Of a stretch of DNA of 64,000 nt, positions 7,654 through 43,428 are shown in pieces. The stretch is taken from IMG/VR virus record IMGVR_UViG_3300035698_034576, positions 19,152-83,151 of that record. One strand, 5' to 3'. Position 1 is the first letter of the stretch; every line of letters starts with the position of its first letter. This DNA comes from a virus. Under the pieces are notes generated by a model, which saw nothing but the letters and a program-made list of their open reading frames with translations, was not told the origin of the DNA and did no database searches. Both the position numbers and the translations under genes were made by a program.

Positions 7654-7863
7654 ATGAGTTTCATAAAAAGACTAAAAGAAGAACATTTTCAACTAGAGGA
7701 AAAAGTAATTAAACTCTCTTCCTTTTTGTTGTCAGAAAAATCAAACGAAATAAGTGAGTTCCAACTAACAATGCTTAAAATTCAGATATTGTCAATGTCA
7801 GCCTATTTGACTTGTCTTGAGTCAAGAATTTTGGATCTTGGAAAAAATGATGATTCAAAATAA
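7654..7863 (+). CDS. Small coiled-coil protein resembling the crAss001_48 family
   Basis: RLKEEHFQLEEKVIKLSSFL...Q..ML..Q...M..YL..LE.RI. Confidence 0.55.
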   Translation: MSFIKRLKEEHFQLEEKVIKLSSFLLSEKSNEISEFQLTMLKIQILSMSAYLTCLESRILDLGKNDDSK

Positions 7864-17703: not shown

Positions 17704-17723
17704 TTTTGTTATATTTATTAAAA
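17704..17723 (+). promoter_or_regulatory. Late-type promoter motif TTTTGTTATATTTATTAAAA
   Basis: The same or a similar motif precedes the portal (21079), 31832, the lysis operon (36581), 39402, the scaffold and the sheath operon (49690). Confidence 0.65.
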
Positions 17724-18861: not shown

Positions 18862-19359
18862 ATGGAACATGTTAGATTAAACATTCTTAAATCCTTCGGA
18901 ATTTCAGATATTAAAAAAGGTGGAAAGAAGACCGGAGTGTACGAAAACACTTCAGAGAACAGAAAGCTTGGCAGAGTCGGCCAAAAATATTCTAAGGAGA
19001 AAGATACTCCTGAAAATAGAAAGCTTGGTAGAGCTAGTAAGAATAACCCTGGGATACAGGGGAATCAATCCTCAAATAAAGCCCCTAGCGACAAGAGAGC
19101 CAATGAATTTTTTGGAGAATCTAAGCATGGACAAGCGATAGAGGCTCTAATGGATGGAACCTGGAATAGAGGAAAGGCTGAAAAGTATCTTGATGAGGTG
19201 AGTAGCGATGATAAGAAGTGGTCAAATATAATGAATAAAATATCTAGCGATCTTGGAATAGATTCTTCTAAGCATGACACCTATGGAAGTCAAACAAAGG
19301 AGATGATTGATAAAATGGGAGAGCTTTATGAAATTAGAGGTGGAGAGGGCAAAAAATAA
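18862..19359 (+). CDS. Tagged putative internal head protein 3 (module partly duplicated)
   Basis: MEHVRLNILKSFGISDIKKG-GKKTGVYENTSENRKLGRVGQKY...DTPENRKLGR. Confidence 0.7.
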   Translation: MEHVRLNILKSFGISDIKKGGKKTGVYENTSENRKLGRVGQKYSKEKDTPENRKLGRASKNNPGIQGNQSSNKAPSDKRANEFFGESKHGQAIEALMDGTWNRGKAEKYLDEVSSDDKKWSNIMNKISSDLGIDSSKHDTYGSQTKEMIDKMGELYEIRGGEGKK

Positions 19360-33157: not shown

Positions 33158-35263
33158 ATGTTTTCAAAAGCAGAAATACAAGCTCTGTTAAATGTAATAA
33201 ACAAGAATAGTTTGTTCTTTATTGCTTCCCAACTTGGGAAGCATTTGTTATTACCGGACGATGTTTCTTTTTTAAAAAAGGAAGGAATAGATCTTTCTAA
33301 AATAATCACAAAACATAGTCCGCTAGAACAAGCCTATTTGTTTGGCCATATATCTACTCTTCTGGAAAATGATGTTGTCAAGAAGATGACCTTCAAAGAC
33401 TTCACTAAATACTTGACTAGTGATAAATGGATGCCTCTTATACAAAAAGAAAAATATGCTCTCACAGCAGTTGAAAACTTTGCATACTATGAAATTCGTG
33501 GACTTGGAACAAGATACAATCAAAGGCTTGGTCATTTAGTTTCTGAAGTAGATAAAAAAACAAAAGAGGCGAGAGAGTTAAGTGTTAAAAAGACGGCAAA
33601 AGAGGCTATTGTAAGAAGGGAGAATAAAAAGTGGCTAGCTTCAGAACTCAGATCAATAACAGAGGATTGGGGAAGAGATTGGGGAAGAGCTTCTGATTTT
33701 ATAATGACCACAGCTTACTCAAAGGGTTCTGTTGAAGCTGCAAAAAAGAGGTCTGGAGAACAAGCAAAGGTTTGGATGTCTGTTTATCCGCAAGCATGTA
33801 AGCATTGTATCAAAGCCTATTTAACAGATGGAATAGGATCAAGGCCAAGAGTTTTTCTTGTAACGGATCTTGAGAGGAATGGGACAAATATCGGAAGAAA
33901 GACTGCAGAAGCCTTACCCGTTGTTCCTCCATACCATCCACATTGTTTTACAAGTGGTAGGACTCCTGTTATGACAGAAGAGGGCTATAAATTTATAAAC
34001 AAAATAAAAATAGGGGATTTAGTTTTAACTCATAAAGGAAGATTCAGAAAAGTTAGTCAATTGCATTTTAATAAAATAAAAAAAATTGAGATAGAAAATA
34101 AATATTTCAATATTACTTATAAAATAAAGCAATTTGACAAAACCGATAAATTTGTTACTATTTGTAAGATAACTCCGGATCATCCTTTTTTATCAAATAA
34201 TAAGTGGGTGTCAGCTAAAAAACTGAAGATCAATGATACTTTATCTTTATTACAAAGAAAATGTTTTAATCCTAAATGTGAAAACTATACTTCTATATCT
34301 TCCAAATTTGAAGAAAATCAATATTGCTCCATAACTTGCGGAAATTCTCGCTCAGCTAATAAACAATGGGAAAATTACTCAGAGGATAAAAAAGCATCAA
34401 TATCTAAAAATATCAGTGAAGGAAATTTAAGAAGATATAAATTAACATCAAAAGAATACAGACAAAAATTAACTGAAAATGGACGTATAGCTCATGAAAA
34501 AGTAATGTCTACATGGTCAGATGAAAAGAAAAAAGAAGTTATTCTTAAAATAAGAAATTCTAATAAAAAAACATGGTCTTCTTTTACTGATAAAGTAAAA
34601 ACAAAAAAAGCTTCTAAAGCCAGGAAAAAAAATTCTTCTCATGGTAGATCAGGAAATTCTCCATTAGAAATTACTTTTTCAAAAATTTTAAGTAAATTTG
34701 ATCAGAATTTTACTAATAATTTTAAAATAGAAACAAAGAGAACAAACCCTAATAATTCAAATCAATCTATTTATAGATGGCTGGATTTTTATGACCCTAG
34801 ATTAAATATAGTTTTTGAAGTAGACAGTGATTATTGGCACTCTGATAAAGAAAGAGATAGGATAAGAGATAATGAAATTTTTAATCTGATAGGGGCGGAT
34901 ATATTTCATATAAAAGAAGATGAATTTAAAGATTTAATAAAGTTAGAGGAGAAGGTTGGAAGATTATTATCTAATCATAATGGAGACTACTCTTTCAAAG
35001 ATGTTAAAATTGTGGATATAGAAGAAGTTTTCTATAAAGGCAATGGAGAAGGAATGGTTTACACTTATAATCTTTCAGTGGAAGAAGATGAGAGTTATAT
35101 TGTAAAAGGGATCGCTGTACATAATTGCCGATGTGATCCAAACTATTTTCACGACGGATCTGAGTGGGACGAAGAAGAAAAAAGGTTTAAAAAACCTAAA
35201 TATGTATCAAAATACAAACCATTAGTCAAAGTTACTATTAACGGAAAAGAATATGAAGGATAA
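33158..35263 (+). CDS. MuF-like head morphogenesis protein with intein
   Basis: ACKHC...PPYHPH|CRC; the MuF C-terminal motif is interrupted by the intein. Confidence 0.8.
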   Translation: MFSKAEIQALLNVINKNSLFFIASQLGKHLLLPDDVSFLKKEGIDLSKIITKHSPLEQAYLFGHISTLLENDVVKKMTFKDFTKYLTSDKWMPLIQKEKYALTAVENFAYYEIRGLGTRYNQRLGHLVSEVDKKTKEARELSVKKTAKEAIVRRENKKWLASELRSITEDWGRDWGRASDFIMTTAYSKGSVEAAKKRSGEQAKVWMSVYPQACKHCIKAYLTDGIGSRPRVFLVTDLERNGTNIGRKTAEALPVVPPYHPHCFTSGRTPVMTEEGYKFINKIKIGDLVLTHKGRFRKVSQLHFNKIKKIEIENKYFNITYKIKQFDKTDKFVTICKITPDHPFLSNNKWVSAKKLKINDTLSLLQRKCFNPKCENYTSISSKFEENQYCSITCGNSRSANKQWENYSEDKKASISKNISEGNLRRYKLTSKEYRQKLTENGRIAHEKVMSTWSDEKKKEVILKIRNSNKKTWSSFTDKVKTKKASKARKKNSSHGRSGNSPLEITFSKILSKFDQNFTNNFKIETKRTNPNNSNQSIYRWLDFYDPRLNIVFEVDSDYWHSDKERDRIRDNEIFNLIGADIFHIKEDEFKDLIKLEEKVGRLLSNHNGDYSFKDVKIVDIEEVFYKGNGEGMVYTYNLSVEEDESYIVKGIAVHNCRCDPNYFHDGSEWDEEEKRFKKPKYVSKYKPLVKVTINGKEYEG
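33944..35125 (+). mobile_element. Intein (394 aa) with a Zn finger and a Vsr/DUF559-like endonuclease
   Basis: CFTSGRTPV, TPDHPFL, TYNLSVEEDESY, AVHN|C; nuclease WLDFYD..VFEVDSDYWH..DRIRD. Confidence 0.9.
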
Positions 35264-36065
35264 AGATATGAGCATATTAAGAGCTATAAGAGAAGCAACA
35301 GGACAATCCATGCCTCTTAAAAAAGGATTTAAAGCCTATATGAAATTAAAAGAAGAGGTTGATTTGTTAAAAGAAAGTTTATCCCTGCTCTCCATGCAGC
35401 AAGAAGCAACAAAAAACCATTTCAATAAAGCTCTTGAAGCAAATCCTTTAAGACTAGCTGAATTTAATAAAAGGTTTAACGCTAGCTTTGAAGATTATAT
35501 ATCAAAAGTTGAGGAGATAAAGAAAAGCCATGATGAAAAGAAATTGCTAATGGGCCATTACAAAGAGATCACTATTGGTCTTGATGACTGGCTAAGTAAG
35601 TTGATTGAGTATGACAATTTACTTGAAAGTAAAGAGTATAAGTACAAAAAGTTTTTAAAAGATGGTTTAGGGCTTTACAGGAAGGATTTGCCTCAGTTCT
35701 CTTACAAGGATATTCAGGATATATTGGTTAAGCTTGGCAGGGAGGGAATAATATTTAGTAAAGTATCTATTCCTATAGATTTAATAAAACCATCACAAAT
35801 TGATTTTTGCGAAGAAAAGATCCAGAATTTATTAAATAATGGAATTGATGATGAAAACTTTGTTCCAATTATATCTAAGGATTTATTTCTTATTGATGGG
35901 CACCACAGATGGGCTCAAAAACTAGAGGAAGATGATCAGCAAATAATAGATGCTTTTTACATCAACATGAAAGCTGTTGACCTTATAGAAAATCTTAAGA
36001 AAGAAGAGGAAAAAGATAGGGCGAGAGAATTGTTAAAGAGAGCTGAAGAAGCTGGATTGATTTAA
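35253..36065 (+). CDS. ParB/Srx-like domain protein
   Basis: IPIDLIKPSQ...PIISKDLFLIDGHHRW. Confidence 0.75.
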   Translation: MKDKDMSILRAIREATGQSMPLKKGFKAYMKLKEEVDLLKESLSLLSMQQEATKNHFNKALEANPLRLAEFNKRFNASFEDYISKVEEIKKSHDEKKLLMGHYKEITIGLDDWLSKLIEYDNLLESKEYKYKKFLKDGLGLYRKDLPQFSYKDIQDILVKLGREGIIFSKVSIPIDLIKPSQIDFCEEKIQNLLNNGIDDENFVPIISKDLFLIDGHHRWAQKLEEDDQQIIDAFYINMKAVDLIENLKKEEEKDRARELLKRAEEAGLI

Positions 36066-36082
36066 AAAAATTTTAAGATAGC

Positions 36083-36562
36083 ATGAAGAAAGTACCGGAA
36101 GAATTAAGAGATATTGTTGAAAGAAGGAATAAGTTTTTAACCATTGCTTTTTCAGAATTAAAGGACCAAATTAGGATAATAGGAAATCCACAAGCTCCAG
36201 CAATTCTCTTTAACGATACGATTATTATAAGTTGTTACGTTAAAAACTTTAACCTTCATTTCACAAACAAGCCTTATGATGGGGAAATTGTTTCAACGTA
36301 TAAATTGAAAAGTGGGTTTGTTCTTTCAAAGCAAACTATCAAGAATCACCTAAAAGAGAGTGAGCATAGAAAAATCTTTAGAATATCTTTCCAAGGATCC
36401 TCTCTATTTTTGACTGGATGGAACTATAGAGGCCGAGGGGAGCAGGAGGAACTCTATCCTGTTTTTTCCAGGCACAATCCGAAGGTTTATTTTACCCTAA
36501 AGAAAGCTGAAGAGGTTTTAGAGAGACTTAGGGGCTTTCATTATATTGTTGATATATTGTAA
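36083..36562 (+). CDS. Hypothetical protein
   Basis: 159-aa ORF. Confidence 0.6.
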   Translation: MKKVPEELRDIVERRNKFLTIAFSELKDQIRIIGNPQAPAILFNDTIIISCYVKNFNLHFTNKPYDGEIVSTYKLKSGFVLSKQTIKNHLKESEHRKIFRISFQGSSLFLTGWNYRGRGEQEELYPVFSRHNPKVYFTLKKAEEVLERLRGFHYIVDIL

Positions 36563-36611
36563 TAGAGGCTGTCCTTATTTTTTTTGTTATATTTAATAAA
36601 AATAAGAGTAG

Positions 36612-36950
36612 ATGAAAATACTTATTGCAGAAGACGACTTCATATCCGCCCTACTATATAATAAGATCCTTAAGGAGCACACCATATCCATTGTTTTAGA
36701 TGGAATTGATTTCATACAGGAGCATTCTTCTGAATATGATTTATTTATAATAGATTTATATCTAAGGAGGCAGAGTAGCTATGAAATCATAGACTATCTT
36801 GTTTCTGTTGGAAATACTAAACCTATTCTTGTAATTTCAGCCATAGATTTTGATAAAAGACTTATAAAAGAAAGAGACACTGAGATAAGTGTTATGAGGA
36901 AGCCTATTTTGTCAAAAAAACTATTAGAATTCATAAATTTAATAAAATAA
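36612..36950 (+). CDS. Stand-alone CheY-like receiver domain
   Basis: KILIAEDD, YDLFIID (phospho-Asp), LVISA and KP motifs all present. Confidence 0.85.
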   Translation: MKILIAEDDFISALLYNKILKEHTISIVLDGIDFIQEHSSEYDLFIIDLYLRRQSSYEIIDYLVSVGNTKPILVISAIDFDKRLIKERDTEISVMRKPILSKKLLEFINLIK

Positions 36951-36954
36951 AAGA

Positions 36955-37401
36955 ATGTGTAAAGTTACCGATAGTATAATTGAGAGTGCAAAAACAATTG
37001 AGAGAATTGTCACAAAGACAATGAAAGAGATGGAAATTTCAAACATTACCATAAAAGCTGGAAAAGATATTGTTTATGTTTCCGACCTCTCTACAAATAA
37101 AATTGTTTTTCTAAATGATCAAGCAAAACTTCTTTTTGGAGATGCTGTTGGAGAGACATGTTTTACCGCCCTTCAAGATAGTGAATTTGAGTGTGATTAT
37201 TGTAACAATGAAGAGTTATTAGCCAATCCAGAGAAAGAGGTGGAGTGGATATTCTTCAACAAGAAACTTGGTAAATTATTTCGCATAGTTAACTATGTAA
37301 AAAAATTAGAAGATAAAACTTATAGATTTGAGAGAGCCTCTGATATAACAGATCAAGTGGGGGATATAGCTCGCTTGAGTAAAATCCACAAGTTGATATG
37401 A
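36955..37401 (+). CDS. Stand-alone PAS domain protein
   Basis: IVYVSD..IVFLNDQAK..GETCF...CDYC...SDIT. Confidence 0.75.
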   Translation: MCKVTDSIIESAKTIERIVTKTMKEMEISNITIKAGKDIVYVSDLSTNKIVFLNDQAKLLFGDAVGETCFTALQDSEFECDYCNNEELLANPEKEVEWIFFNKKLGKLFRIVNYVKKLEDKTYRFERASDITDQVGDIARLSKIHKLI

Positions 37402-37817
37402 GCGAAACAGAAGAATTAGTAAAAGCGATCGAGACTATGAGTAAGGGTTTTGAGTCGTTAAGAGATAAAATGGAGAATGACAAAAAATCCTCGAGCTTTG
37501 ATTATGTAAAGTGGATAGGAGGACTTGTCCTTGTTTTCATAACAGCATTTTCTGGGAATAGTATTTCTAACGCAAACCTCTTAAATAAAGTAGAAAACAA
37601 TGAAAAAACTGCTAAAACAATTAGCAGTCGCATTGGCTCTTTAGAATCGGAAATGGATATTGTAGTAAAGGATCTTTATGCAAGGGATCATCTCAATGTA
37701 TCTAAGGAAACATTTTACGCTGCATGGTACAATCACATAGAGAAGAATAATTATAACTTTAGAAGAATAGGCGAAAAGATTAACATATCCCTCATAACAG
37801 AAGAGGGGAATAAATAA
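37398..37817 (+). CDS. Single-TM protein, possible holin or antiholin
   Basis: TM segment WIGGLVLVFITAFSG flanked by coiled regions; ATGA-coupled to the PAS gene. Confidence 0.5.
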   Translation: MSETEELVKAIETMSKGFESLRDKMENDKKSSSFDYVKWIGGLVLVFITAFSGNSISNANLLNKVENNEKTAKTISSRIGSLESEMDIVVKDLYARDHLNVSKETFYAAWYNHIEKNNYNFRRIGEKINISLITEEGNK

Positions 37818-37824
37818 AAGAATT

Positions 37825-38226
37825 ATGAAAAAGAGATTTAAAAAAATATGGATATTTCTTTTATCCTGGAACGAACTAATAACAATCCCTGTTGGCCTTT
37901 TCATTTGGTGGATAGGCCCAACATTGATGCGTTGGTCGGGTTTTGATGAGACAGCTGGAGCATACGATTCAGTCGTACTAACAAAGATAGTTTTTGCTAT
38001 AATAGCGACAGGAATACTTTCAGGTTTTGCTTGGATATTTATTAAACTTGCCTTTCCAGAAGCATATCGGTATCTTGATGAGGCCTTAGGCAAAAACCTA
38101 GAAGAAGAAGTTTATAGTGAAGAGTTTTATAATAATAACATGACAAAATGGCAAAGATCAAAAGTAGTATTGTGGCTGTTATCTTTATATTTATTAGTGT
38201 TGGCCTTTTTGGTCAGTGCGATTTAA
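37825..38226 (+). CDS. Putative holin (3 TM)
   Basis: Three hydrophobic segments; overlaps the endolysin gene. Confidence 0.55.
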   Translation: MKKRFKKIWIFLLSWNELITIPVGLFIWWIGPTLMRWSGFDETAGAYDSVVLTKIVFAIIATGILSGFAWIFIKLAFPEAYRYLDEALGKNLEEEVYSEEFYNNNMTKWQRSKVVLWLLSLYLLVLAFLVSAI

Positions 38227-38687
38227 GGCAAGAGCTTCAAACGAACTATAGAGATTTAATAGGAGTAAGAGAGCTAACGGGGAAAAATGACGGAAAGAAA
38301 GTTTCTGAAATTATAGAGGCCTCAGGCTTTGATTCAGTATCAAGAATTCCTTGGTGTGCTGCTTACATTTATTATAACTTTCTTGAAATAGGGCATAGAT
38401 TGGAAATTAAATACCCAGCTTATGCCCCTTCATATTTTCCTGAAAACAGAGTTATTTATACAAGAGGAAAAGGGAAAAAGTGCACTCCTTTAGAGGGGGA
38501 CATTATAGGAATCTATTTTTCATCTAAAGGAAGGATTGCTCATGTTGGGTTTTATGATGGAGAAAATGAGGATTACATAATTTCCGTAGAAGGAAACACA
38601 AATAAAGCTGGAAGTCGAGAGGGTGATGGAGTTTGGGTAAAATACAGACCAAAAGGAACTATTTATAAAATAAGCCGATTTTTATGA
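38148..38687 (+). CDS. CHAP/NlpC-type endolysin with signal peptide
   Basis: PWCAA...GDI...HVGF...SVEGNT. Confidence 0.8.
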   Translation: MAKIKSSIVAVIFIFISVGLFGQCDLRQELQTNYRDLIGVRELTGKNDGKKVSEIIEASGFDSVSRIPWCAAYIYYNFLEIGHRLEIKYPAYAPSYFPENRVIYTRGKGKKCTPLEGDIIGIYFSSKGRIAHVGFYDGENEDYIISVEGNTNKAGSREGDGVWVKYRPKGTIYKISRFL

Positions 38688-39022
38688 TTAAAAAAATAGC
38701 AGTACAGGTTATCTTGTCAATCGCATTGATTGTTGTTACTTATCTATACTTCACAAAACCGGTAAAGATATTCAACACTGATCAGGTTGAGATAAATAGA
38801 TTAAATGATTCAATAAACAAGTTGAAATCTGCTTACAGTTTCCTTCTAGAAAAAGAAAGCGATAGTCTTGTTGATCTTATTGAAAGGAAGGATTCTGTTA
38901 TAAGAATAAAGAATGCTAATTACTGGAACTTAAAAAAGGAACATGAAAAAACTATTATTTCTATTATGGCTATGCCTGACGATTCCATCGTTATCCTTTT
39001 CTCAAGACTCACTATCCAATAA
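38684..39022 (+). CDS. Spanin-like protein (N-terminal TM plus coiled coil)
   Basis: Topology and position after the endolysin. Confidence 0.5.
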   Translation: MIKKIAVQVILSIALIVVTYLYFTKPVKIFNTDQVEINRLNDSINKLKSAYSFLLEKESDSLVDLIERKDSVIRIKNANYWNLKKEHEKTIISIMAMPDDSIVILFSRLTIQ

Positions 39023-39347
39023 AAGGGTTTTTGTAAGCATAGACCAATTAAGGATAGCTGTTGTAAAAATGGTTAGGCTTGATCAATTGCAAATTGAAGT
39101 AGATTCTTTGCTCTGTATAAACAAGAATTTATCAACACTTAACGTAGATTATTTTAATCTAGTTAGAATAGAAGAAAAGAAAAATGAAAATTTGCTAAAT
39201 AGAATTCAATTTTATGAGGAGATTTCTCTAAGAGAGAACGAAAGATATGAGAACATGGTTAAAGAAAATAAGAAAAAAAGAATCAAACAGGGAGTTGTCG
39301 TTTTTGCCGGAGGACTTATACTTGGAATTTTAACTACATTTTTTTAA
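38943..39347 (+). CDS. Spanin-like partner (signal peptide, coiled coil, C-terminal TM)
   Basis: MKKLLFLLWLCLTIPSLSFS|Q and GVVVFAGGLILGILTTFF; overlaps the previous gene. Confidence 0.5.
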   Translation: MKKLLFLLWLCLTIPSLSFSQDSLSNKRVFVSIDQLRIAVVKMVRLDQLQIEVDSLLCINKNLSTLNVDYFNLVRIEEKKNENLLNRIQFYEEISLRENERYENMVKENKKKRIKQGVVVFAGGLILGILTTFF

Positions 39348-39401
39348 TTCATTTAAAAAATTTTAATATATTTAATAAATAAATAACTAATAAACAAAGT
39401 C

Positions 39402-39995
39402 ATGGACAGAATTTATTTAAGACCCGACGGAACTGTAAATATGGACAGTAATTACATTCCTCAAGAGGATATGGATATAATGACGAAAAAACATTCTGAG
39501 CAACCTACCTCACAATTAGGGACCCCAGGAGAGGTTTCTGTTGTAGGAGAGTTTGGAACGAAAGATTTTCGTAAAACAGTAATTGCTTTTGACGGTGATC
39601 TTGGGGCTATTGCCGGTGGAGCAGACCTTGCTCTCGGAGCATTGATTTATACTTTTCCAGCTGGGGTTATCAGAGTAAATTCTGTAAAAGCAAATTTCAG
39701 CTTGCAGCAAAAAGATGGAAAAGTAACTGCTGACACTCCAGAGGTTGGAATTGGAAGTACCGTTGGAACAGGAGTCACAGACACATTAGCGACCACTACT
39801 GATAACATTCTTGCAGGAGTTGCTATTACAGATTGCGACGGGACAGTAGAAAAAAGAGTTGCTTCATCAACTCATACAGTTTTAGAGGATGCTGCTCATA
39901 CAGTATTCTTTAATGTTGCTGATGGATGGGCTGCTGATGGTGATGCTGCCCTCGGATTTACTGGTGAAGTAGTTATTACTTGGGAAATACTTTAA
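39402..39995 (+). CDS. Putative virion structural/decoration protein
   Basis: Gly/Thr/Ala-rich beta-type sequence; late-type motif at 39361. Confidence 0.5.
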   Translation: MDRIYLRPDGTVNMDSNYIPQEDMDIMTKKHSEQPTSQLGTPGEVSVVGEFGTKDFRKTVIAFDGDLGAIAGGADLALGALIYTFPAGVIRVNSVKANFSLQQKDGKVTADTPEVGIGSTVGTGVTDTLATTTDNILAGVAITDCDGTVEKRVASSTHTVLEDAAHTVFFNVADGWAADGDAALGFTGEVVITWEIL

Positions 39996-40008
39996 TAAAA
40001 CTAAGCTG

Positions 40009-41004
40009 ATGAAAAGCAATCGGTTCAACTTTTTCGTTCCTGCTACTATCTCTAAGTCAAGAGATAGTAGTGGTAATGAAATTATGGAAGTACAAGGAGT
40101 TGCCAGCACTATAATGAGAGATCTTGAAGGAGAATCTTTGGATCCATCAGGGTTTGAAATAGATTACTTTTTAAAGAGCGGACTGTTAAAGTGGGAGCAT
40201 GGAAAAGACCCAAAGTCTTATATAGGAACCCCAACTGAGGCTAGAGTAACCAGTAACAACGAATTTTTTATAAAAGGAAGGCTCTGGAATGACTCTGAAA
40301 CAGCAAGAAGTGCTTATGAATTAGCCAAGACTTTAGAAAAAAGCAATTCAGGAAGAAAAATAGGGTGGTCAATAGAAGGAAATTCCCTTGAAAAGAGTGC
40401 TGATGGTAAAAATATTCCAAGAGCTAGAATTACAAATGTGGTTTTAACAATGAACCCTGTTAACACAAACACATGGGCAGAAATTGTAAAAAGCAATTTT
40501 AAAGCCGACTATATAGAGCCAGAATTTGAGAAAAAAACAAATTATCAAGGGGAAGCTTGTATTTTCAGCTCAATAGAAGGAAATCAAGAAATATCCATTG
40601 ACACTGACTTTAACATTGTTAAAAAATCTATTGACCCTGACATAATTAAGAAAGATGAAACTAAGGGAGTTCCAAAAGATTTTTTAAGTGATTTGATAAA
40701 AGAGCATGAAAAATTAATTTGGCTATTAAAAGAAGGCACTAAAGAAGAGATTGAAGAGGAATTAAAAATTCAACAAAAGGAATTGGAGACTTATAAAAAA
40801 GAGTATAACTCTTTGGGTAAAACAATAAGCACTAATTCTGGAGCAGCTTTAGTAGCAGAAGATGTTGAAGGTTCTCCAAAGGTTTTGGCTAAAAGTGTAA
40901 GCTCTGATTGCATACAGAAATCAGTAACTATTCTTATAAATGCTATTTTGGAAGGAATTTTACCTAAATCTGAGCAAGAAAAGATAAAAAAAGCGATTGC
41001 ATAA
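40009..41004 (+). CDS. Prohead protease
   Basis: VQGVAST..RDLEGE, KWEH, IGWSIEG, VVLTMNPVNTNTW. Confidence 0.85.
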   Translation: MKSNRFNFFVPATISKSRDSSGNEIMEVQGVASTIMRDLEGESLDPSGFEIDYFLKSGLLKWEHGKDPKSYIGTPTEARVTSNNEFFIKGRLWNDSETARSAYELAKTLEKSNSGRKIGWSIEGNSLEKSADGKNIPRARITNVVLTMNPVNTNTWAEIVKSNFKADYIEPEFEKKTNYQGEACIFSSIEGNQEISIDTDFNIVKKSIDPDIIKKDETKGVPKDFLSDLIKEHEKLIWLLKEGTKEEIEEELKIQQKELETYKKEYNSLGKTISTNSGAALVAEDVEGSPKVLAKSVSSDCIQKSVTILINAILEGILPKSEQEKIKKAIA

Positions 41005-41976: not shown

Positions 41977-43428
41977 ATGAATGAATTATCTGTTGGATTA
42001 GACTCCTATATGAGTCAATCCGGAGCAGGTGAAAGCTCACAAGCCGAACTTGCCGAACTTCAAAAAGCCTTATCCGCCGGTGCTATCACAGGCAGAGATA
42101 CTGATGGCTCATCAAGCGCATCTGGAGCCCCTTTAAAAGTTGAATCTTTGGAAGGCACTCTTAAAGTAATCACCTGGAAAGAATCTGACATCCAGCTATG
42201 GAAAAAAGTTCCAAAACTTCCTGCTTATAACACAGTTGAAGAGTACAATCAGCTGGTAAGTTATGGCGAAGAAGGCATGGGAGGCTTTAACCTAGAGGGA
42301 GAACTTCCTCAAGAAGCTGACTCAGTTTATACCAGACGATCAGAATTGGTTAAATTCATGGGGGTTACCGGTTCGGTATCTCACCCAATGCAACTTGTAA
42401 CCACAATGATTGGAGATGTTCTTCAACAGGAGATCAAAAACAAAATTCAATGGTTGCTTAAAAAAGCTGACGTTGCTCTTGCTTATGGAGATGCCTCCAT
42501 AGTACCTCAGCAGTTCAATGGTTTTTACAAACAACATCAAACTGGTGTTATGGGTGAAACAGGAACTCTTGCTGATTATTACAACTCTGGCAATACAGTA
42601 GATATGGGTGGCAAAATTCTTTCTGAAGCTGGTCTTGAAGACTCTTCTCTTGGAATTATTGAGAATTTTGGTTACGCCGATTTGCTGATGGGTTCTCCTG
42701 AAGTTTTGTCTGGATTTGTTAAAAATTTCCATGACAGTAAATTTATCACTCCAAATACTCCATCATTAACTGACGGTGTTATGGGACAAAGGGTGAAAAC
42801 TTTCATGTCTCAATTTGGTGAGATTGAGCTGTCTTATGATAAATTTTTGAAAAAACAAAGACCTCGTGCCGCTTCAGCTCCTGCTTTGACAACCGTGAAT
42901 CCTCTCGCCGCACCAACAGTTACTGCTGCAATTGAAACCTCTACTGCTTACTTCTTGAAAGCTGGAGATTACAATTATGCTGTTGCTGCTTTAAACCGTT
43001 ATGGTGAAGGAGCCATGAGCACTGCTATTTCAGCTGTTACAGCAACTGCCGGTGATGCAATGGATCTTACTGTTAGTAAGGTGACAAATGCCACTGGATA
43101 TGTTGTTTATCAGACTGAATTGGATGGTACTATTCTTTACCCGGTCCTCACAATTAGTGAAGCTCAAAGAGCTGCTGGTTATGGTGGAGGAACTGCTGGA
43201 AAAATCAGAGTTGACGGACGCATTCTAGCCAATACTGAAGAAGCATTCTTAATTGAGAATTCTGCTCAAGTTTGGTCATTTAAACAACTTGCTCCATTGA
43301 TGAAAATGGATCTTGCTGTTCTTGCTCCAGCGCAAAGATTTATGGTTCTGCTTTATGGAACTCCCCAACTTTACGCTCCAAAAAAGATGGTCCGCATCTA
43401 TAACATTGGGAAAAACCTTCCTTCTTAA
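41977..43428 (+). CDS. Major capsid protein (SPO1/Twort-like)
   Basis: LQKA|LSAG, PLKVESLE, AYGDAS, LAPLMKMDLA..LYG...APKK. Confidence 0.9.
   Translation: MNELSVGLDSYMSQSGAGESSQAELAELQKALSAGAITGRDTDGSSSASGAPLKVESLEGTLKVITWKESDIQLWKKVPKLPAYNTVEEYNQLVSYGEEGMGGFNLEGELPQEADSVYTRRSELVKFMGVTGSVSHPMQLVTTMIGDVLQQEIKNKIQWLLKKADVALAYGDASIVPQQFNGFYKQHQTGVMGETGTLADYYNSGNTVDMGGKILSEAGLEDSSLGIIENFGYADLLMGSPEVLSGFVKNFHDSKFITPNTPSLTDGVMGQRVKTFMSQFGEIELSYDKFLKKQRPRAASAPALTTVNPLAAPTVTAAIETSTAYFLKAGDYNYAVAALNRYGEGAMSTAISAVTATAGDAMDLTVSKVTNATGYVVYQTELDGTILYPVLTISEAQRAAGYGGGTAGKIRVDGRILANTEEAFLIENSAQVWSFKQLAPLMKMDLAVLAPAQRFMVLLYGTPQLYAPKKMVRIYNIGKNLPS

Follow-up and report, generated by a model that had tools for sequence, protein, structure and literature searches.

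A receiver, a PAS protein and a bitopic membrane protein encoded together in a lysis gene unit of an IMG/VR phage record

We analysed a 64,000-nucleotide stretch of an IMG/VR virus (record IMGVR_UViG_3300035698_034576, positions 19,152 to 83,151; this whole stretch is hereafter the window), in which seven genes between 36612 and 39347 combine a stand-alone receiver, a stand-alone PAS protein and a bitopic (single-transmembrane, TM) membrane protein with genes for lysis. The receiver, PAS and membrane genes form a co-inherited trio, the PAS and membrane genes are translationally coupled, and the three are packed into one unit with the lysis genes. That this trio is what is conserved, as judged by sequence comparison among relatives, is a new finding here; the initial annotation had taken a receiver and a PAS gene heading a lysis operon as the unit, and this has to be replaced by receiver, PAS and single-TM protein. 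Lysis timing is the best-supported reading of the trio, drawn from gene order only. With a probability of about 0.4, the three products would be a sensory module, expressed late, that works through protein contacts at the inner membrane to tune when the downstream holin–endolysin system fires.

The source record, of 83,151 bases, ~33% G+C and a CheckV completeness of 75%, recurs in salt-lake metagenomes, and no RNA dataset was found among the sequencing runs that contain it. The seven open reading frames (ORFs) all lie on the + strand, with consecutive gaps of ≤7 nt or overlaps, and the tightly packed run that had been described was found with every ORF in place. The earlier observation as a whole (gene content, gene order and the lack of a kinase or output domain) was confirmed. 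The features of the unit are listed below; models were made with AlphaFold2 (AF2).

36582..36604, + strand: promoter-like motif, 8 nt before the receiver gene; a 23-mer copy and a degenerate 21-mer copy
36612..36950, + strand: stand-alone receiver (REC), 112 aa (amino acids); profile match, AF2 model, conserved residues
36955..37401, + strand: stand-alone PAS protein, 148 aa; Cys2 and the C69-x10-C80-x2-C83 triad, AF2 model
37398..37817, + strand: bitopic membrane protein, 139 aa; ATG in an ATGA overlap with the PAS stop codon
37825..38226, + strand: 3-TM membrane protein, 133 aa, candidate holin; three hydrophobic segments and position
38148..38687, + strand: endolysin, 179 aa, with an N-terminal signal anchor; PHROG endolysin families
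38684..39022, + strand: N-terminally anchored protein, 112 aa, i-spanin-like; topology, 4-nt ATGA-type overlap with the endolysin gene
38943..39347, + strand: 134-aa protein with a signal-like segment at the N-terminus and a TM segment at the C-terminus; 80-nt overlap with the preceding gene
39361..39381, + strand: second copy of the promoter-like motif, at the end of the unit and ahead of the head genes; matches the degenerate 21-mer without mismatch

The receiver, PAS and membrane proteins

As single sequences, both signalling proteins score under their Pfam cut-offs: the receiver reached 24.3 bits against Response_reg (PF00072; cut-off 30.2) and 23.4 bits in the genome search, and the PAS protein reached 17.4 bits against PAS_9 (E 0.0056; cut-off 27). 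Four-sequence profiles and structure models nevertheless support both domains. The receiver has three IMG/VR relatives at 36–41% identity, and the four-sequence receiver profile matched 109 solved receiver chains (best 4.5e-12). Its AF2 model is a (βα)5 fold, with five strands alternating with five helices (predicted local distance difference test, pLDDT, 88.5; predicted template modelling score, pTM, 0.83), and each key residue lies at the expected strand end: the acidic pair after β1, the Asp at the end of β3, the Ser/Thr at the end of β4 and the Lys after β5. D8, D9, D48 and K97-P98 are invariant in 4/4 sequences, and position 76 is Ser or Thr in 4/4 (S76 here). The CheY-like receiver with all key residues that had been claimed is upheld by this pocket and by the (βα)5 model; as judged from the alignment and the model, the receiver looks functional, with its phospho-acceptor pocket intact and conserved.

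The initial annotation had also reported neither a histidine kinase nor a DNA-binding output domain, and none was found: HATPase_c, HisKA and Hpt had no match at E ≤0.1 in the 83-kb record (75% complete), and no DNA-binding domain was seen in the seven-gene unit. Receiver-based scans of viral contigs returned only loci that were already known, and a tblastn search of phages with the receiver of one relative (L003) returned nothing. Most other receiver tblastn matches, those in Listeria, Staphylococcus, Enterococcus, Salmonella and Acinetobacter records, were left out as suspected host-derived contigs. A receiver-like match in Pseudomonas phage Komp_PAO1_1 was rejected; it lies opposite an annotated coding sequence and outside any lysis context.

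Single-sequence searches with the PAS protein found nothing in viral contigs or in a 5.8-billion protein set, and alignments were needed. With a profile built from four phage sequences, a set of 1.84 billion representatives yielded 7065 proteins at E ≤0.001 and 3344 at E ≤1e-10, and among the best 150 matches listed most were large multi-domain proteins. All 18 relatives scanned with Pfam carry PAS domains, and in P0019 and P0026 the Pfam PAS_8 domain falls within the stretch matched by the profile. Partner domains in the relatives included HisKA/HATPase, GAF, STAS, PocR and MASE11, and kinases and GGDEF proteins are among these relatives; receiver–PAS fusions were absent from the 18 cellular relatives scanned. 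The AF2 model of the PAS protein, made from 33 stand-alone homologues, had a pLDDT of 84.9 and agrees with the five-stranded antiparallel sheet and flanking helices of PAS domains. Its core (residues 39–130) is above 90, a helix of low confidence precedes it and another helix follows at the C-terminus. Foldseek gave 271 matches to this model at E ≤0.001, down to 5e-7 and led by PpsR, FixL and LOV, and VIA-align gave Z scores of 10–12.1 to PAS structures over 85–122 residues. The PAS profile had no match at E ≤1 among solved chains, a set in which the presence of the NreB chain was not confirmed.

Three cysteines mark the PAS protein. C69, C80 and C83 are invariant in 33/33 stand-alone PAS proteins and present in 276, 263 and 271, respectively, of 287 domain hits. 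In bacterial genome loci, C-x10/11-C-x2-C occurs in 63/65 domain hits, with one further hit spaced x13 and one without the motif. Cys2 (start 'MC') was found only in 16 phage-type PAS sequences. The PAS domain with C...CxxC that had been noted is therefore borne out, by the PAS fold of the model and by the invariant C-x10-C-x2-C triad. The C-x10/11-C-x2-C PAS domains are a large subfamily (7065 representatives), for which literature searches turned up no described cofactor.

A scan of genome contigs for the PAS domain gave 43 loci, all matching part of the query only, with PAS ORFs of 423–1396 aa; no prophage copy of the trio was among them. The bacterial relatives in these contigs came mostly from anaerobe lineages (Clostridia, Desulfovibrionaceae, Planctomycetota and Bacteroidales), which fits an oxygen-labile cofactor, in a sample biased by the search pattern. 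The subfamily is often tandemly duplicated in 840–1400-aa proteins of anaerobe lineages (loci L089–L131). A tblastn search of phages with the PAS homologue P0001 returned four 'Bacteriophage sp.' faecal records. One of these, the 'UNVERIFIED Bacteriophage sp.' record L004 (MT835688.1), was dropped as phage evidence since it looks bacterial: it encodes a PAS-GAF-GGDEF protein of 451 aa and has genes like those of pyrimidine biosynthesis. A contig from two salt-lake runs (X1 and X2) fits the source record up to 36956 and resumes at 37300, with 8 other letters between. This junction would delete most of the PAS gene; contigs were short and depth was low, no joint rose above the threshold, and the contig may derive from a relative.

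The 139-aa membrane protein has a short lysine-rich N-terminus, one hydrophobic segment (37–56) and a helical C-terminal part of ~85 residues. The ATGA overlap of the PAS stop and the membrane-gene start was read directly in the sequence, and the single-TM protein with such an overlap that had been described is correct on both counts, one helix and overlap. An ESM Atlas search with this protein returned only unnamed viral clusters. XhlA/'hemolysin' homology was not established, as phrog_1193 was matched by only 2/4 members, at E 0.03–0.05.

The three genes travel together. Among the Cys2-type PAS loci fetched, a receiver gene lies directly upstream in 11/11, and the membrane gene lies directly downstream in 10/10 of those whose DNA continues. 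The 11 loci are the window, L001, L002 (with identical copies L013–L015), L012, L003 (with L011), L010 and L009, making ~7 distinct versions; L009 ends at the PAS gene and hence is not among the ten. Wherever the trio occurs (L001–L003 and the window), its PAS gene either overlaps the membrane gene or abuts it. Two further viral loci, L008 and L143, encode a PAS protein without Cys2 that is overlapped by a one-helix membrane gene and has no receiver, and the L008 membrane protein aligns to that of the trio (hhalign E 8.8e-5). These receiver-less pairs indicate that the core of the module is PAS plus membrane protein, with the receiver added in one branch.

Lysis genes, relatives and the transcription unit

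Directly downstream of the trio, the 3-TM gene (37825–38226) overlaps the start of the endolysin gene by 79 nt, as does its L001 counterpart, whose product is 69% identical. These 79 nt (38148–38226 here, 8914–8992 in L001) are read in two frames, one giving the signal anchor of the endolysin and the other the last membrane helix of the 3-TM product. The 3-TM protein lacks a charged C-terminal tail and ends within its last hydrophobic segment. The initial annotation had called it holin-like; its three TM segments and its endolysin neighbour fit, and a holin family match is wanting, so that on topology and position only it is a candidate holin.

The endolysin (38148–38687) matched PHROG endolysin families at 7.6e-12, 4.8e-9 and 4e-7, is 66% identical to its L001 homologue and has a hydrophobic segment at 8–24 that serves as an N-terminal anchor. 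Against NlpC/P60 it gave E 0.041, and against TIGR02594 it gave 4.1e-8 (33.6 bits, under the 70.55 cut-off); no solved relative was found by sequence. Of the CHAP endolysin that had been proposed, the endolysin part stands and no CHAP assignment was obtained. The last two genes had been described as spanin-like. The 38684–39022 product has a TM segment at 5–21 and a topology that fits an i-spanin, with no family match in Pfam or PHROG, and the overlap of the two genes also fits. The 38943–39347 product, with hydrophobic segments at 4–20 and 118–134, matched a PHROG 'membrane protein' at 2.8e-4; it has no canonical lipobox and carries a C-terminal TM segment, at odds with an o-spanin. As spanins, the two genes are candidates by topology and position only.

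We then compared the surroundings of the trio among relatives. A lysin or candidate lysin lies within ~2.5 kb of the trio in 4/4 lineages with flanks, and in the window the lysis genes are directly adjacent. In L001, two genes (one of them GH16) stand between the trio and the homologous 3-TM and endolysin genes, which lie 1.4–2.1 kb downstream. L003 has GH16 ahead of the trio and, ~1 kb downstream of it, an M15 endolysin gene (phrog_465, 2.5e-18). In L002, two membrane proteins, a DUF5675/phrog_1501 protein and GH16 are all encoded upstream of the trio; the DUF5675/phrog_1501 protein is a plausible lysin because its family fills the slot in Alteromonas phage XX1924 where the syntenic phage PB15 has an M15 endolysin. 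An endolysin-based search for relatives gave one locus without the trio (L134) and one that ends 127 nt upstream of the endolysin (L133). Linkage to lysis genes holds in receiver-bearing relatives; the receiver-less PAS–membrane pairs lie, as read by eye, apart from recognisable lysis genes.

Two gene families recur around these loci. GH16 genes lie beside the trio at 7851–8615 in L001, 2474–3244 in L002 and 165–851 in L003 (Pfam E 1e-22 to 1e-14), and the genome of the window has no GH16 gene. DUF5675/phrog_1501 proteins are encoded in or near the endolysin slot at 2438–2836 in L138, 1937–2434 in L002 and 5577–5987 in L136, and the family may be a lysin.

Receivers also occur in the lysis cassettes of cultured Alteromonas phages. 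All of the Alteromonas phage receivers examined (4/4) lie inside a lysis cassette and beside a one-helix coiled-coil membrane protein. In A5 (OP481051) the order is gp10 (TM and coiled coil), gp11 receiver, gp12 (N-terminal TM and coiled coil), gp13 (two TM) and gp14 endolysin. In V22, a papain-like amidase and the coiled-coil membrane protein ORF29 come before the receiver (ORF30), and behind it follow an Rz-like spanin (ORF31; 7e-6), a lipoprotein ORF that lacks annotation and ORF32 with two TM segments. PB15 encodes a multi-TM and an XhlA-like protein (phrog_937, 1.8e-16) ahead of the receiver, with an endolysin (phrog_894, 1.6e-31) and a holin (phrog_3427, 2.6e-40) after it, and XX1924 has the same gene order. 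The unannotated ORF of V22 (L136, 4244–4543) encodes 99 aa with a lipoprotein signal ending in LTGC and overlaps the end of ORF31; it is probably an o-spanin.

Like the receiver of the window, those of the Alteromonas phages are single-domain proteins that retain the acidic pocket, with no evident kinase. Unlike the window, these phages have no PAS gene, and their membrane partner, encoded upstream of the receiver, is not detectably homologous to that of the trio (hhalign probability 0.1–0.2%; 0.2% against the PB15 XhlA-like protein). The receivers of the two groups are related at the general family level only (E 8.4e-6). By gene order, the Alteromonas cassettes give independent support to an association between receivers and lysis in unrelated phages. 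In the available text of the Alteromonas phage papers, the receiver is filed as an auxiliary metabolic gene (AMG) or as part of a host-recognition module (PMC10579305, PMC7289586), and the words 'endolysin' and 'holin' are absent from the available text of the V22 paper.

Downstream of the unit lie head genes, with a maturation protease at 40009 (phrog_1028, 1.7e-44) and a major head protein at 41977 (phrog_752, 2.7e-78). A late-type promoter motif had been noted at 36581. The 14-mer at that position was not enriched by itself (13 matches v 8.7 expected). Alignment of its + strand copies revealed a longer conserved block, and both a 23-mer extension (5 copies v 0.02 expected) and a degenerate 21-mer (6 copies v 0.10 expected) were enriched. 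The 21-mer copies, at 17704, 21079, 31797, 36582, 39361 and 49690, all lie on the + strand, each in a gap that is followed by a + strand ORF, and those at 36582 and 39361 exactly bracket the seven-gene unit. An extended promoter-like motif is thus present, and 'late' is inferred from its position, as copies precede the head genes. The motif of 36582 was absent from all 134 loci scanned for it. A sigma-70 promoter scan showed no enrichment (17 matches v 20.1 expected), terminator-like sites numbered 5 (v 1.9 expected) and were all inside ORFs, and a blastn search of 36000–40000 against the phage collection matched nothing.

Because there is no room for an internal promoter and the motif copies bracket the run, we treated the seven genes as one unit. 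Separate transcription of the receiver and PAS genes, which would speak against a joint role with the lysis genes, was judged unlikely, there being no internal gap and promoter-like motifs at both ends.

Outside the unit, the 701-aa head-region ORF at 33158–35263 has an apparent intein-like insert, which starts after 'HPHCF', ends in '…VHNC' and has an interior rich in endonuclease-like motifs. PHROG matches to this ORF cover its two flanks only.

Possible functions of the trio

The closest described parallels to the cysteine triad are PAS sensors that bind Fe-S clusters. NreB binds a [2Fe-2S] cluster through C63-x2-C66-x11-C78, and its cysteines are described as essential for cluster binding and signalling (PMC13478379). 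OrpR binds a [4Fe-4S] cluster through C52-x8-C61-x3-C65, with the cysteines again described as essential for both (PMC8359166). As far as these sources describe them, the phage PAS protein resembles both in having three conserved cysteines in the helical segment that joins β2 to β3 within a cytoplasmic PAS core. Unlike them, it has no kinase or AAA+ output, and its cysteines differ in spacing and order (C-x10/11-C-x2-C); the difference in spacing makes this an analogy and not membership. The cofactor of the phage PAS protein could also be zinc, or the cysteines a disulphide switch. In overall build the protein is like short LOV proteins (PpSB1-LOV and the YtvA LOV core): a stand-alone protein of ~140 residues whose PAS core is preceded by a cap helix and followed by a Jα-like helix. 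Its model aligns to these with Z 10.4–11.2 over 105–119 residues at 13–24% identity, and the cysteine triad is specific to the present PAS family.

In phage T4, RI and RIII act on the holin T in lysis timing. Like T4 T with RI/RIII, ICP1 TeaA/ArrA and N4 gp62/gp63, the trio consists of small phage proteins encoded with lysis genes, and the products of the N4 and ICP1 systems are described as timing holin triggering by contact at or near the membrane (PMC12642591, PMC7182436). For N4 gp63, an N-in, C-out topology and a regulatory region in the cytoplasm are described, and its 'Receiver domain' is, in the available text, the name of a pinholin region only (PMC12642591). The T4, ICP1 and N4 regulators have no homology to the trio and no receiver or PAS domain, and their input, as described, is superinfection and not a phospho- or redox-type signal. 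The VqmA-Phi protein of phage VP882 is reportedly a PAS-type receptor that takes up a host-derived signal and controls the lysis–lysogeny decision. It differs from the PAS protein of the window in having a DNA-binding output that acts on transcription in the lysogen, whereas the latter has no output domain, a place in a late lysis unit and a membrane partner. No characterised lysis regulator built this way came up in literature searches for phage receivers or PAS proteins that control lysis, in keeping with the initial annotation, which knew of none.

If the trio does tune lysis, the following steps can be envisaged. With three or four of its cysteines, the PAS protein would bind a metal or Fe-S centre and read the redox or energy state, and it would dock on the cytoplasmic N-terminus of the membrane protein (~37 residues). 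Since the phage has no kinase, the receiver would be phosphorylated by a host kinase or by acetyl phosphate, and would then modulate the PAS–membrane protein complex. The membrane protein would in turn act as an antiholin-like or holin-assisting factor.

Several observations weigh against lysis timing. In L002, an apparent tail-sheath gene (read by eye) follows the trio, and GH16 and another gene stand between the trio and the candidate lysin. The receiver-less pairs of L008 and L143 lie between structural-looking genes, with no evident lysin in their flanks as read by eye. Between the window and L001, the products of the trio are 41, 36 and 23% identical and those of the lysis genes 69 and 66%; the trio being more diverged, the two blocks may have separate histories. 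Lysis cassettes are, moreover, common landing sites for accessory genes. Neither the 139-aa membrane protein (in particular, no holin, antiholin or XhlA) nor the 3-TM protein matched a family in Pfam, PHROG or NCBIfam. A lysis unit headed by signalling genes, as originally interpreted, agrees with the gene content and with the lysis linkage of receiver-bearing relatives, and disagrees with the conserved unit and with the receiver-less pairs.

One alternative that makes the lysis neighbourhood incidental is a host-signalling decoy, encoded as an AMG, in which the receiver would act as a phosphate drain on a histidine kinase of the host, with the PAS protein pairing with the matching host sensor, so that a host two-component pathway is silenced or redirected late in infection. 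The lack of any kinase, HisKA or Hpt in the phage suits such a role, as does the closeness of the PAS core, with profile scores of as much as 182 bits, to sensor domains in cellular kinases and in GGDEF and STAS proteins; one relative, P0105, is a minimal PAS-HisKA-HATPase kinase. The faster divergence of the trio relative to the lysis genes and the filing of Alteromonas phage receivers as signalling AMGs, in the literature as available, point the same way. A decoy would, however, leave unexplained both the obligatory, translationally coupled membrane protein and the recurrence of receivers in lysis cassettes of unrelated phages. Takeover functions are also usually encoded by early genes, and the unit shares its motif with head genes. 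We think this explanation somewhat unlikely, though not far-fetched.

The receiver-less pairs beside tail-fibre-like and structural-looking genes, the GH16 genes that flank the trio in L001, L002 and L003, and the sizeable periplasmic coiled-coil part of the membrane protein speak for a membrane module for some other late function, be it superinfection exclusion, remodelling of the envelope or polysaccharide together with GH16, or control of virion export or assembly. The genome of the window keeps the trio without any GH16, however, no exclusion or defence family was matched (PADLOC was not searched), and adjacency to a lysin is the more constant feature of receiver-bearing loci; we regard another late function as unlikely. 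Least probable, and in our view very unlikely, is a regulator of late gene expression by partner switching, with receiver and PAS sequestering or releasing a membrane-bound factor in the manner of an anti-sigma system: the trio stands first behind a phage-specific promoter-like motif and related PAS domains are fused to STAS partner-switch domains (e.g. P0024), but the module has no sigma, anti-sigma or DNA-binding domain, its membrane protein matches no such family, and it starts a late-looking unit instead of standing earlier in time.

Lysis timing is a main fitness trait of phages, and its known regulators (antiholins; the inhibition systems of T4, N4 and ICP1) read superinfection and not host physiology. 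The role proposed here for the receiver, PAS and membrane proteins could be one case of something wider, which we put forward as a doubtful possibility: phages may repeatedly have wired bacterial signalling into their lysis clocks, with a kinase-less receiver and an Fe-S or thiol PAS protein jointly gating a membrane protein, so that the phospho-signalling and the redox or energy state of the host, and not holin accumulation alone, would set the moment of bursting. If lysis tuning by the trio is true, it would give a virulent-type phage a route to read host signalling and redox state at the last step of infection. As receivers within lysis cassettes are also found in cultured Alteromonas phages with known hosts, the idea is directly testable.

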